DNA of 64,000 bases, taken from the NCBI GenBank assembly GCA_964458315.1, contig CAYWIK010000002.1:6433-70432 (forward strand), read 5' to 3'. This DNA is from an uncultured Spirochaetales bacterium. GTDB lineage: Bacteria; Spirochaetota; Spirochaetia; SPDA01; CAZSGZ01. The notes beneath the pieces are model-generated. The model did no database searches. It saw only the letters and a program-made list of their open reading frames with translations, and was not told the origin of the DNA. Shown here piece by piece: positions 47,218 to 51,968 of this stretch (its first letter is position 1; the number at the start of each line of letters is the position of its first letter). Both the position numbers and the translations under genes were made by a program.

Positions 47218-49197
47218 ATGAAAACCGTTAAACCGACTCTCGAAGAAATCTACGGCAGTTTTAATGAAATAGAAGATACCCGGCTTTCCGGGCCGGGGCC
47301 GCGGGGGCGCCTTCCTCTGACCGAAGAAATGCTTTTAAACTATCCGAGCGGGCATTTGTTCGGCATGACTGAAAACGCGGGGATGGGCTGGAAGGCGGAA
47401 GAACTCGACCGCGATCAGTTTGTCATTGTCAGCACCCATGGGGGGTTGAGCGCCGAAGACGGCACACCCATTGCCCTCGGGTATCACACCGGGCACTGGG
47501 AAATCAATCTTCTTGTCCGCCGCGCCGCGGAGACCTTTCGTGAGCAGAGCGCCGTTCCCTTTTCCCTCTATTGCTCGGACCCCTGTGACGGCCGGACCCA
47601 GGGGACTGCCGGAATGACCGACAGCCTGCCGTACCGCAACGACGCGGCCCAGGTCATGCGCCGTCTAATCCGCTCCCTGCCGACACGCAGCGGGGCGATG
47701 GGGATAAGCGCCTGCGACAAAGGACTTCCGGCGGTGATGATGGCCCTCGCGGGATGTGCCGATCTCCCGGGAATCATCGTGCCCGGAGGAGTAACCCTTC
47801 CCGCGGAAGGAGCGGAAGACGCGGGAAAAGTACAGACCATCGGCGCACGGTTCGCCCACGACCTCATCACTTTAGATTATGCCGCGGAAATGGGCTGCCG
47901 GGCCTGCGGTTCCTCCGGCGGCGGATGTCAGTTCCTGGGCACGGCGGCCACCTCGCAGGTAGTGGCGGAAGCTCTCGGCATGGCCCTGCCCCACAGCGCC
48001 CTGGCCCCTTCCGGCGAACCGATTCTATACGATATGGCGCACCGCTCCGCCCTTGCGCTCCTCCGCCTGCATGCAGAGAAGATTGCGCTGCAGACGATAT
48101 TGACGCGGAAGGCTGTGGAAAACGCCATGCTTCTCCACGCGGCCTTCGGAGGCTCTACCAACCTTCTGCTCCATATACCGGCGATTGCACACGCGGCCGG
48201 CTTGCAACCGCCGACTCTCGAGGACTGGAACCGGGTCAACCGGAGCACCCCGCGCCTCGTGGACGCGCTTCCGAACGGCCCGCGCAACCATCCGACGGTG
48301 CATGTTTTTATGGCCGGGGGCGTTCCGGAGGTAATGCTTCACCTCCGCGACATGGGTCTGCTCAACCTGGATGTAATGACCGTCACCGGCCGGTCCCTCG
48401 AAGAAAACCTTGACTGGTGGCAGCACTGCAAACGCCGGCGCCGGTGCAAAGACCATCTTTCAAACGCAGCAAAAGTCGATCCCCAAGTCGTCATCATGGA
48501 ACCCGACCGCGCCAGGAGGGAAGGCCTGACCAGCACCGCGGTTTTTCCCACCGGCGGCCTCGCTCCCGGAGGGTCGGTAATCAAAGCGACATCGATTGAC
48601 CCGAAAGTTGTCGGTGAAGACGGTGTCTACCGCCACCGCGGGCCTGCACGGGTTTTTATCTCCGAAGAAGACGCGATTGCCGCCCTCAAAGGACGAACGA
48701 AAAACCCGGTAAAAGCAGGCGATGTGATTGTGCTGATCGGGATCGGGCCGCTTGGTACGGGGATGGAGGAGATATACCAAATCACCTCGGCCCTCAAATA
48801 CGTCTCCTGGGGCAACCGGGTGCCGATTCTGACGGACGGCCGTTTCTCCGGCGTTTCGACCGGGGCGTGTGTCGGGCATATCGGTCCGGAAGCGCTTGCC
48901 GGCGGGCCGGTCAGTCGGGTCCGTGACGGCGACACCGTCGAACTGGTTATTGACCGCGTCAACCTGACCGGCCGGATTGATTTAGTAGAGACCTGCGACG
49001 GACAACCGCCTGAACAGGCGCTGGCTGAACGGCCGCCGCACCCGGGTATGAAACCCCACCCGAAACTGCCGGATGACACCCGTCTCTGGGCTGCCTTGCA
49101 GAAGGCCGGCGGAGGCGCCTGGGGGGGCTGCGTCTATGACACGAACCGCATCATCGAGGTCTTGGAAGCGGGCCTGGCGGCAAATAAAACGCAGTAA
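47218..49197 (+). CDS. IlvD/EDD-family dehydratase, YjhG/YagF-like (sugar-acid dehydratase)
   Basis: 659 aa, the size of the YjhG/YagF subgroup; CDK motif ([15 protein letters not shown]); Fe-S cluster Cys residues; markedly higher GC than neighbouring genes. Confidence 0.8.
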
Positions 49198-49315
49198 GCG
49201 GCCGGCGCGGATTCTTCGTCAGCCTTTTAAACCGGCTTTTACATCTTCTATAAAAAGCGTCTGCGTCGGATAGGCAAACTCGATATTTTCCTATGCTTCC
49301 GATAAAATCTTTGGC

Positions 49316-49801
49316 TTGTCAGTTGGTCCTCAGGAAAAAGGACCGGCAATAATCGTAAATACGTGGAACAGGATCTCCACCGAACGGCAGATTTTCAGCG
49401 CGGTCCATGAATTAGGGCATCTGTTGATGCACGTATCCGAGGACAAGGAGAAGGAACAAGAAGCCGACTTGTTTGCAGGACACTTCCTCATGCCCAAGGA
49501 CGGATTCGATAAGGAATGGGCAGATACGTTCGGCATGAGCTTCCTTGATAGAGTCATGAAGGTGAAACGGATCTTCAGGGTGAGCTATAAGACTGTTCTC
49601 TATCGTCTTGTCCAAGAAGGAGAAATTAGTGATTCTATCTGGCGTCAGTTTCCCTCTGCCTTCGAAAGATACTATGGGAAGAAACTATCTCAAAAAGAGG
49701 AGCCCTCTTTTGAGGGCGCCGAACCGTATGCTACTAAGTTGACATCACCTACAATAGTCGGAGAACCAAAGCAACTTGACTTCGTATGCAATATGCAGTA
49801 A
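49316..49801 (+). CDS. ImmA/IrrE-family (COG2856) metallopeptidase domain protein, possibly N-terminally truncated
   Basis: HEXXH motif in the typical ImmA context (AIIVNTWNRISTERQIFSAVHELGHLLMH); the frame opens only at 49274 and has no ATG, only a TTG at 49316. Confidence 0.6.
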   Translation: MSVGPQEKGPAIIVNTWNRISTERQIFSAVHELGHLLMHVSEDKEKEQEADLFAGHFLMPKDGFDKEWADTFGMSFLDRVMKVKRIFRVSYKTVLYRLVQEGEISDSIWRQFPSAFERYYGKKLSQKEEPSFEGAEPYATKLTSPTIVGEPKQLDFVCNMQ

Positions 49802-49826
49802 TATTGCATACGAAAAGGAGATACAT

Positions 49827-50072
49827 ATGCCGTTACTGCAGGTGCGGGATTTTCCCGATGATTTGTACGGTTCGCTGTCCCTCGCGGCAAAGAATGACAA
49901 CAGAAGCATTGCGCAAGAGACAATCGTTCTTATAAAATCGGCCCTCGGACAGCGGGAAGGAAGAATTGCCCGGCGAAAAGCTGTTCTTGAAAAGTTACAA
50001 TCTTTACACGATGAAAACGGGGAAACGTTTCCCGAGCCCGTCGAACTGATCAGAAAGGATCGAGAGAGATGA
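49827..50072 (+). CDS. vapB: ribbon-helix-helix antitoxin (VapB/CopG-like)
   Basis: 81 aa starting MPLLQVRDFPDDLYGSLSLAAKNDNRSIAQE (RHH pattern); AAGGAG RBS 6 nt upstream; stop overlaps the start of the PIN gene (ATGA). Confidence 0.7.
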   Translation: MPLLQVRDFPDDLYGSLSLAAKNDNRSIAQETIVLIKSALGQREGRIARRKAVLEKLQSLHDENGETFPEPVELIRKDRER

Positions 50073-50467
50073 ACGTCGTTCTGGATGCATGCGCCGCGGT
50101 TGAGATTGTTTTCAACCGTTTACCGTCAAAACATTTTTACGAATTTTTACGTACCGCTGACTGCGTTTACAGCACGGAGCTTTTCAAAGCCGAGACGGCG
50201 AACACTTTGTGGAAATATGTCCGCAAGGGGTTTCTGTCTAAAGATAAAGCCGTTTCGCTTCAGCGATTGGCCGTTGAATTGATAGATGATTTTATTGATA
50301 TAAATGAAAACAGCATCGAATCTCTCCATGAAGCAATCAGACTGGACCTTCCAGTTTACGACCTGCTCTACATGACTCTCGCGCGGCGCACCGGTTCCAT
50401 TTTAATTACGATGGATAAAAAAATGGCCGAAGCATCGAGAGAGGCGGGTATTACCGTTGTCCCGTAA
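50069..50467 (+). CDS. vapC: PIN-domain toxin VapC
   Basis: N-terminal VVLDACAAVE (first PIN acidic residue), conserved acidic positions downstream; 132 aa; translationally coupled to the RHH gene. Confidence 0.8.
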   Translation: MNVVLDACAAVEIVFNRLPSKHFYEFLRTADCVYSTELFKAETANTLWKYVRKGFLSKDKAVSLQRLAVELIDDFIDINENSIESLHEAIRLDLPVYDLLYMTLARRTGSILITMDKKMAEASREAGITVVP

Positions 50468-51632
50468 CAAGAAACCGGCAGATTTTCCGTCTTTAGTCTC
50501 CCTCTTCCTGGAAAAATTAGCTGACTTCCAGTATCACTTGTCAGGGTATGATCATGTCTGGGACATTTTATTCTCCGCTGCCGAAGACCGGCCGCGCCAT
50601 GTACGAATTATTAAATACCGGGAAACCCGATACCTTTTCCATGTTGACGGAAACAGCTGTAATCTGGAAATTACGCCCAAGGGGAAAATAATCCCTTCTG
50701 ATTCTCCGGCCTTCTCCGGCGGCATGGGGCCATGGGGTATAGACCCGGAACCGTCATGGCGGCCCCTCTTTGAAGGAATGTACAAATGGACCGAAAGGGT
50801 AAAAAAAGACTGGATTCGGGCGGCTTGGGAAATCGAGCAACTCTATCCCCTGCGACGAAGGACTGGAACCATCCCCAATTCCCTCGTCCGGGCATCCCTT
50901 CCTGCCGTTTACCGGCTCGACCGTGAAATAGGAGAGCAGGCCCGCGATACCTTTATCGGCCTGGTGGAAAGCGGATATTTTAACAGAAATGACAAAACGA
51001 CGGTAAAATCCATGACGGCACGTGACTTTTTTCACTACTGCCGCATTGCCTACAGGGCGGGCAAAAGGCCGGAGGATACGTTGGATGAAAGTCTCTCCGG
51101 CCGGGAGATGTATGAACGCTACGCCGACGGAAGGCACGAGGGCCTGCTGGATATCGATGAAACATCACCCGAAGAATTTGCCGCGTGGATAGACGGTACC
51201 CATCCGAAAAGGACCACCGGGGGCCACCCATGGGAAATCAAGCGGGGAGGAAATACCACCCACATCGATATGTATGTCATGCGGCCGCCGTACCAAAAAG
51301 AGGGGTTCCAGATTATGCTGAGAGCGGCCGCCTTGGGCAGGCTCGCGGAGACCCTGCGAATGCTTCTGGCAATCCACGGGGAGGGGCTGCCGATTACCCT
51401 GGACGACGCCGAGGGCGTTCGGAAACGGCTTCTGGGGCAGGACAACATCGGGATACTCCCGGAATATGAGACCCCCCACCGGGCACAGCAGCTGTTTGAC
51501 AAATCGAAAGATGTCTACGATGTTCTGCACCTGGCCGACCTGGGAAGGTACAAGCGCCGCCTGACTCGGTTCATCACCTGGGTTCCCTTGCCGCTTTTTG
51601 TGCCGCTGGACCCGGGCAGAAATAATTTCTAA
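50457..51632 (+). CDS. hypothetical protein (391 aa), unknown function
   Basis: Long ORF overlapping the vapC 3' end by 11 nt; no recognisable motif; followed by a 336-nt AT-rich gap. Confidence 0.5.
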   Translation: MSRNKKPADFPSLVSLFLEKLADFQYHLSGYDHVWDILFSAAEDRPRHVRIIKYRETRYLFHVDGNSCNLEITPKGKIIPSDSPAFSGGMGPWGIDPEPSWRPLFEGMYKWTERVKKDWIRAAWEIEQLYPLRRRTGTIPNSLVRASLPAVYRLDREIGEQARDTFIGLVESGYFNRNDKTTVKSMTARDFFHYCRIAYRAGKRPEDTLDESLSGREMYERYADGRHEGLLDIDETSPEEFAAWIDGTHPKRTTGGHPWEIKRGGNTTHIDMYVMRPPYQKEGFQIMLRAAALGRLAETLRMLLAIHGEGLPITLDDAEGVRKRLLGQDNIGILPEYETPHRAQQLFDKSKDVYDVLHLADLGRYKRRLTRFITWVPLPLFVPLDPGRNNF

Positions 51633-51968
51633 AAAAGAACGCTCACGAAACACCTACCCCACGTTCTACCTGTCAAACTCAGCAGCCACACGTTATGTAA
51701 GATAACCTTTCATGTCAAAGAATAAAAAAAAAAATTAACTTGACCTTTTAATATAATTTATATAAACTTTCATAAGAAACTGTAAGTACATAATTGTTCT
51801 TTTTTTATTCAGTTACCGTTACCTAATTGTTGACAAAGAAAAAGCTGCGGAATCTTCCGATCACAATTTCTTCCAATTAATAACCGAATCAGCTGACAAA
51901 ACCAAGAATTATTTTGCTTATACGGTTCACAATATTTTAACCGGAAAAATCCGGACAAAGGAGACAGC

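Follow-up and report, generated by a model that had tools for sequence, protein, structure and literature searches.

A proposed two-layer mosaic downstream of lysA in an uncultured Spirochaetales bacterium

Did the genes that follow lysA in an uncultured Spirochaetales bacterium arrive together, as one mobile element? We addressed this question in a stretch of 64,000 nt (GenBank assembly GCA_964458315.1, contig CAYWIK010000002.1, positions 6,433 to 70,432 of the forward strand), called here the window. Its positions 47218 to 51968 had been described, from the letters alone, as a compositionally distinct accessory patch: a sugar-acid dehydratase gene with a high content of guanine and cytosine (GC), a fragment of an ImmA/IrrE-type peptidase, a vapBC toxin-antitoxin pair, a 391-aa protein and a closing AT-rich tract. 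This original prediction took the patch for a horizontally acquired or remnant mobile region, and proposed base composition, synteny with relatives and the nearest neighbours of the dehydratase as checks. The coordinates that it gave for the five open reading frames (ORFs), which are reported below with each gene, were correct.

Our reading, to which we give a probability of about 0.7, is that the region, which borders a conserved gene block, is a mosaic of two layers and not a single mobile element. The first layer would be the dehydratase gene, xylD, whose donor was probably GC-rich, for instance a member of the Chloroflexota or Actinomycetota; it would have been gained in the common ancestor of a narrow spirochete clade and kept since then by purifying selection. 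The second layer, from 49198 to about 52500, would be a hypervariable spot after xylD that receives different cargo in each lineage. The cargo here would consist of the stump of an XRE-M78 regulator of the type found in phages or integrative and conjugative elements (ICEs), an autonomous vapBC pair under a palindromic operator, an orphan gene for 391 aa whose translation is coupled to that of vapC, and an RRM gene that is self-contained, having an AT-rich leader and a terminator to itself. The identities of the genes, the breaks in synteny and the composition are observations; the direction of transfer, the co-transcription and any role of the 391-aa protein are our interpretation.

Gene order around lysA and xylD

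The anchor of the region is a gene for a lysA-type pyridoxal phosphate-dependent decarboxylase (45946 to 47199, + strand; TIGR01048 at 300.8 bits, cut-off 297.9), which is the last gene of the block common to all relatives. After a gap of 18 nt it is followed by xylD (47218 to 49197, + strand), which encodes 659 aa and is probably co-transcribed with lysA. The product of xylD matches TIGR03432 at 1055.4 bits (cut-off 808.15), residues 22-649 aligning with profile positions 12-640 of 640, and both Pfam domains, ILVD_EDD_N and ILV_EDD_C, were found in it. Having exceeded the equivalog cut-off, it classifies as a full-length D-xylonate dehydratase of the YjhG/YagF type and is predicted to be functional, in which case it would convert D-xylonate to 2-keto-3-deoxy-xylonate. 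No partner genes for an aldolase (YagE/YjhH), a transporter or a regulator adjoin xylD. Its opposite strand carries long shadow ORFs of 64-150 aa, as had been noticed before, and there is an off-frame ORF of 219 aa on its own strand as well.

Two sister lineages, L095 and L179, keep the same lysA-xylD junction, and because of this xylD is probably an older, clade-level acquisition, imported from outside. In L095, lysA is 92% and xylD 84% identical to the window. L179, with a lysA identity of 88%, is collinear with the window from 43387 to 49172, that is, from the SSB gene through xylD; its xylD product is about 88% identical at the protein level and the gene about 80% at the DNA level, therefore the changes in xylD are mostly synonymous. 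The next relative with shared synteny, L007 (lysA 74% identical), has the order UPF0014, ABC, hypothetical gene and lysA, and then continues with aspS, rex and serine-pathway-like genes. Furthermore, xylD was found within 10 kb of lysA in none of 80 loci from GTDB species representatives, around 30 of them Spirochaetota.

Behind xylD each lineage goes its own way. With both blastn and tblastx, the matches to L095 and L179 end at 49172-49188 (about 49181), at the 3'-end of xylD, and the junction at 49198 to 49315 is where sister-lineage homology has ended and the M78 gene is truncated. In L179 the 10 kb past xylD (L179 6013-16012) have a GC content of 0.356 versus 0.52-0.62 for lysA and xylD, and contain a GH43 fragment, AAA_14/DUF4143, HicB, CopG, a different PIN and VapB, and a UDG-like gene. 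Nothing in this stretch matches the 64-kb window. It is a toxin-antitoxin island at the same junction after xylD.

On the right-hand side, nucleotide homology to the sister lineage L180 resumes at 52490 to 52675, upstream of a gene for a YdcZ-type transporter (52676-53584); in the blastn alignment, L180 4043-5102 is 87% identical to window 52514-53572. L180 and L181 stem from the study that also yielded L095, with L180 sharing its sample, and their YdcZ gene is 88% identical to that of the window. The left neighbour of YdcZ in both is a peroxiredoxin gene and not the RRM gene, which is not present in these contigs and has no counterpart beside YdcZ there. The RRM gene is thus still outside the homologous part, which begins only at about 52490-52514, and the claim that the patch ends in the AT-rich tract does not hold. 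As the synteny check was meant to reveal, the gene order is not common to all relatives and breaks at the 3'-end of xylD and at about 52500.

The alternative closest to the original prediction is that the whole of 47218-51968 is one acquired island, a decayed prophage or ICE, with which xylD, the ImmA-type regulator, vapBC and the gene for the 391-aa protein came in together. Such genes are indeed typical cargo of islands, the best match of the M78 fragment is the phage regulator family phrog_2439 (E = 3e-23), and E. coli yagF and yjhG are located in cryptic prophages (PMC13279387). However, the aligned sister lineages largely refute a single island, since L095 and L179 have xylD at the same junction but not the rest. 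What close relatives lack at this site is the segment from 49198 to about 52500 and not xylD. Moreover, the GC content is 0.62 in xylD against 0.45-0.55 in the other genes, and the break in homology on the right is found at about 52500 instead of 51968. Marks of mobility, already reported as missing, were not found either: there was no tRNA and no Rfam match, no flanking direct repeat of 14 nt or more beyond chance-like pairs, and no integrase domain in those genes of the patch and its surroundings that were scanned, not every gene of the window having been included. We consider a single island highly improbable. What stands of the claim of horizontal acquisition is that xylD looks foreign and that the segment after it is without a sister counterpart; these are not one unit, because the lysA-xylD junction is common to L095 and L179 and from 49198 onward each lineage differs.

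Two further observations concern the neighbourhood. The alignment of L180 and L181 jumps from window 53572 to 58215. The window has, at 53585-58214, between YdcZ and an aldo/keto reductase gene, genes for a NADase_transloc-domain protein, a methyl-accepting chemotaxis protein, CheW and a LuxR-type regulator, and in L180 the aldo/keto reductase gene follows YdcZ directly. These coordinates describe a second lineage-specific indel. On the other side of lysA, a fetA-like ABC ATPase gene (44632-45330, - strand) is open and alignable from 45318, with 44% identity to a 212-aa protein of L007 and the Walker A motif GPSGTGKS in the aligned part. No ATG, GTG or TTG occurs in it before 45072, an ATC codon at 45318 has a perfect AGGAGG 6 nt upstream, and the public gene calls give a truncated product of 146 aa. 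This suggests that the gene either starts, non-canonically, at the ATC or has had its start codon mutated.

Genes between xylD and the YdcZ-type gene

The first gene after the junction (49316 to 49801, + strand, 161 aa) is what is left of a regulator with an XRE-type helix-turn-helix (HTH) domain and an ImmA/IrrE-like M78 domain. Peptidase_M78 matches at 63 bits (cut-off 22) over profile positions 28-122 of 123, and the HEXXH motif, HELGH, occupies residues 31-35. Nevertheless, the gene spans only about positions 176-311 of the profiles RmrA (PADLOC), spr1629 (NCBIfam) and phrog_2439, which are around 365 aa long; in the full-length families its match starts at profile positions 176-190. The sole option for a start is TTG. 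The reading frame is closed by an in-frame stop at 49271-49273 and the stop of xylD is at 49197, therefore the HTH half of the gene is gone; the N-terminal half, around 180 residues including the HTH, is absent, and just 118 nt separate the remnant from the xylD stop. Neither an HTH ORF nor a cognate XRE repressor was found beside it, the downstream gene being an antitoxin of the ribbon-helix-helix (RHH) type. This bears out the earlier description of a peptidase domain that lacks an ATG start and an XRE partner. The gene is a 5'-truncated remnant and not a working module. The stump marks a past recombination event at the junction.

The vapBC pair comes next. The vapB-like gene (49827 to 50072, + strand), with an AAGGAG ribosome-binding site upstream, encodes a putative RHH antitoxin of 81 aa whose match to FitA-like_RHH is weak (18.2 bits, under the cut-off of 27). 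The vapC gene (50069 to 50467, + strand) encodes a PIN-domain toxin, with PIN at 36.1 bits (cut-off 23.6) and the acidic residues D6, E42, D98 and D116 read from the translation. The two genes overlap by ATGA, so that the coupled pair of the original prediction is in place, its RHH member being a putative one. A promoter-like site, TTGACT-17-TAATAT (49776 to 49804, + strand), is overlapped by a perfect 14-nt inverted repeat (49781-49794 and 49801-49814); site and repeat together, 49776 to 49814, lie 13 nt upstream of the vapB ATG and are likely the promoter and operator of vapBC. The pair thus appears intact and equipped with a promoter-like site of its own. A repeat placed inside the promoter is the layout usual for an autoregulated type II toxin-antitoxin module.

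The 391-aa gene (50457 to 51632, + strand) starts at a TTG which overlaps the end of vapC by 11 nt, with GAGAGG 12 nt upstream, and its translation may be coupled to that of vapC. It belongs to an uncharacterised conserved family. We found 655 homologues at E <=0.001, of which the best 120 are 49-73% identical and around 380 aa long, apart from a database copy that is 100% identical. The named ones belong to the Spirochaetota, Desulfobacterota, Acidobacteriota, Verrucomicrobiota, Chlamydiota and Gammaproteobacteria and are always annotated as 'hypothetical'. Identity across phyla is 50-57%, and a profile search with the family recovered at least 768 clusters at 50% identity. The family alignment has a mean column identity of 63% and two invariant blocks, GGHPWEIKRGGNTTH and ADGRHEGLLDI, the core of both being retained in relatives at 22-30% identity; the family motifs can be written as GGHPWEI.RGGN(S/T)TH and ADGR.EGLL. 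The ORF had been called unassignable, and so it proved: no match was obtained in Pfam, NCBIfam, PADLOC or PHROG, distant members included, and comparison of its structure with the PDB gave no fold match, the AlphaFold model being confident (pLDDT 88, pTM 0.82).

Regarding the mode of spread of this family, carriage by plasmids or cultured phages was considered and rejected, as tblastn gave no match in PLSDB or INPHARED; the search of IMG/VR gave just two distant matches, of 32-36% identity. An IS-like element around the gene was also discarded, with terminal inverted repeats and conserved flanking k-mers absent in 45-48 loci. Nor was there a conserved partner: when 162 neighbours, taken from 57 distinct loci, were compared all against all by BLAST, only four two-member clusters came out. 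The gene is always a lone one, with no recurrent neighbour in these non-redundant loci. After 36 implausible ORFs had been removed by eye, there remained 55 plausible immediate neighbours, among which Pfam identified AbiEii (3), HTH_3 (3), DDE transposases (3), PemK (2), Fic (2), RHH (2), GNAT (2), YhcG and an integrase arm domain. PADLOC added SoFic, AbiEii and several candidate-defence (PDC) families, and the precomputed contexts of the family agree with a neighbourhood of toxin-antitoxin, defence and transposase genes. Phosphoesterase genes occur near one member and one distant relative of the family. On an IMG/VR contig (L087, 6731-9387) a distant relative of 430 aa (32% identity) is flanked on both sides by metallophosphoesterase genes (NinI-like phrog_246 and phrog_547), and in a metagenomic locus (L108) a calcineurin-like phosphoesterase adjoins a family member.

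Judging from the Asp, His, Glu, Arg and Cys residues of the invariant motifs, and from the genes around the homologues, we read the 391-aa protein as an enzyme, most likely a stand-alone one of the flexible genome, possibly with a role in defence or addiction. The motifs of HNH, PD-(D/E)xK and Pol-beta nucleotidyltransferases were compared by eye with its conserved loop and rejected, as spacing and predicted secondary structure do not fit. A bolder and doubtful proposal is that the protein, maybe a phage-defence or addiction enzyme, is the first example of an undescribed single-gene system that is widely transferred and has a new fold, present in toxin-antitoxin and defence islands of at least six phyla and here coupled to VapC.

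The last gene of the segment is the RRM gene (51969 to 52220, + strand), whose product of 83 aa matches RRM_1 at E = 7e-25. It ends in an intrinsic terminator hairpin (52267 to 52292, + strand; -15.7 kcal/mol, z-score -5.33). Upstream of it lies the AT-rich intergenic tract (51633 to 51968, + strand), which has the length of 336 nt and the AT-richness (GC 0.33) attributed to it; its A run is A11 at 51724-51734 and not A10 at 51726-51735. A GC content of 0.33 is within the intergenic range of the window (0.215-0.585), and the tract contains a promoter-like TTGACC-17-TAAACT at 51740-51768. It probably serves the RRM gene as promoter and 5' leader. Actually, the tract is ordinary intergenic DNA and no island boundary. 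A structured RNA in it was rejected (no Rfam match, fold z-score -1.45). A 14-nt inverted repeat, 93% complementary, is formed by the A11 run at 51720-51733 and a T-rich stretch at 51797-51810, 63 nt downstream, and is probably due to chance in AT-rich DNA.

The gene order of the window was found in three contigs of the same population, from two metagenomes (microbial-mat and related), at 99.6-99.9% nucleotide identity. The arrangement is fixed in the sampled population. The single-nucleotide polymorphisms among these contigs are evenly spread, which disposes of a hot spot or of relaxed selection between strains in the stretch from the M78 remnant to vapB. Such fixity is one argument for the alternative that the M78 remnant, vapBC, the 391-aa gene and the RRM gene are ancestral at this site, the window showing the old state and the sister lineages having lost or replaced the segment. 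The composition of the segment is host-like, the arrangement is the same in all three population samples, and, with other DNA at the site in every sister lineage, the ancestral state is defined by none of these. However, incoming DNA typically carries such things as a truncated regulator or a toxin-antitoxin pair, the 391-aa family is patchy across phyla, and L179 has a different toxin-antitoxin set at the same site. We therefore hold an ancestral segment to be quite unlikely.

Origin of xylD and the weight of the evidence

The nearest named homologues of xylD, at 68-73% identity, are Chloroflexota or Actinomycetota in every case, which answers the check on dehydratase neighbours in favour of an import; among the best 120 hits, many of them unnamed, none is named as Spirochaetota. 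It is also the outlier in GC content. The window has a GC content of 0.506 and its 53 genes a mean of 0.503 (standard deviation, sd, 0.043), with a mean at third codon positions (GC3) of 0.562 (sd 0.062). With 0.621, xylD is at the top of the 53 genes (z around 2.7), as had been claimed with respect to its flanks, and its GC3 of 0.702 is second only to that of 60182-61900 (0.729). The genes of the trp operon reach 0.56-0.58, therefore the genome is compositionally heterogeneous. The M78 remnant, vapB, vapC and the 391-aa gene, with 0.45-0.55, are host-like, so the description of a compositionally distinct patch fits xylD and not the rest.

A different view of the same figures is that xylD is not a recent import but an old resident of the clade, with a GC-richness that is intrinsic to its family (Ala, Gly, Arg, Pro) and selected, composition being then uninformative about transfer. 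At the first and second codon positions xylD has GC contents of 0.67 and 0.49 (lysA 0.56 and 0.37), constant across three lineages with differing backgrounds. Its GC3 exceeds that of the adjoining lysA by just 0.04-0.10 in the three lineages, its codon-usage distance of 0.266 is mid-range in the window, and the gene has been retained at around 80% nucleotide identity between lineages. Much of the GC signal of xylD is amino-acid composition. Against old residence, xylD does not stand beside lysA in L007 and around 30 other Spirochaetota loci, no named Spirochaetota appear among its best 120 hits, and its GC3 is 2.2 sd over the window mean. On balance old residence seems to us possible but unlikely.

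Several points tell against the mosaic and must be set beside the evidence for it. The surplus of GC in xylD falls mainly on the first and second codon positions, and neither in codon usage nor in dinucleotides is its distance remarkable, so that in the composition check xylD stands out by GC and not by these measures. Most of its close homologues carry no taxon name, which leaves room for a spirochete origin. The contigs of the sister lineages are short or cover at most 10 kb past xylD, so gain versus loss is not polarised, and the linkage of xylD to YdcZ is not established in them. The insertion would have left no integrase, tRNA or repeat as its mark. Finally, the association of the 391-aa family with defence islands was counted without a background control and after the hand-filtering of 36 ORFs.

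Two genes invite separate remarks. The lysA-type decarboxylase has an identity of 65-69% with proteins from Methanosarcinales, Bacteroidota, Fibrobacterota, Verrucomicrobiota and others (L020, L022, L025, L028, L044), and its identity to other Spirochaetia, 70-74%, is barely above this; either strong constraint or frequent transfer may be the cause. The gene at 60182-61900, for an ABC_ATPase/MRB1590-type P-loop protein, is a second compositional outlier, with a GC content of 0.586 and the highest GC3.

Taken as a whole, the region is a small and routine islet of variable DNA, in which a probably imported metabolic gene is joined by a toxin-antitoxin pair and a pseudogene, and it illustrates how a GC anomaly and island-like genes can make two events that differ in age look like a single island. 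The 391-aa family is its only unusual part, being large, strongly conserved and without a model or a PDB analogue, and given the genes around the homologues it is a reasonable candidate for screens for new defence or addiction functions.

Comparison with known systems

The M78 remnant can be compared with XRE-M78 fusion regulators, namely RmrA, the spr1629-family repressor/antitoxin and phrog_2439. It shares with them the M78 domain with HELGH, but the copy in the window has neither the N-terminal HTH half nor an ATG nor a partner repressor. The ImmR/ImmA anti-repressor logic of ICEBs1 and of phages is the comparison system for M78 regulators.

The toxin-antitoxin pair resembles VapBC/FitAB in its small upstream gene for a putative antitoxin, the ATGA overlap with a PIN toxin and the four acidic residues, and also in the palindromic operator predicted inside a sigma-70-like promoter. 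It differs in that the RHH match of the antitoxin is below the Pfam cut-off, and in that a third ORF, the 391-aa gene, overlaps the 3'-end of the toxin gene, an arrangement which is not conserved in homologous loci.

Regarding xylD, it is a full-length member of the same equivalog family, TIGR03432, as YagF and YjhG of E. coli, which belong to the cryptic prophages CP4-6 and KpLE2. This family is known to travel with mobile DNA (PMC13279387), whereas in the window xylD stands alone behind lysA with no prophage context visible.

Finally, in comparison with toxin-antitoxin or defence islands and chromosomal 'hot spots', the islet of the window is small (around 3.3 kb), has no integrase or tRNA anchor and holds a housekeeping-like RRM gene. 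The likeness lies in the lineage-specific cargo at one fixed junction, where L179 has toxin-antitoxin genes, and in the AbiEii, SoFic, PemK and PDC families among the neighbours of the 391-aa family.

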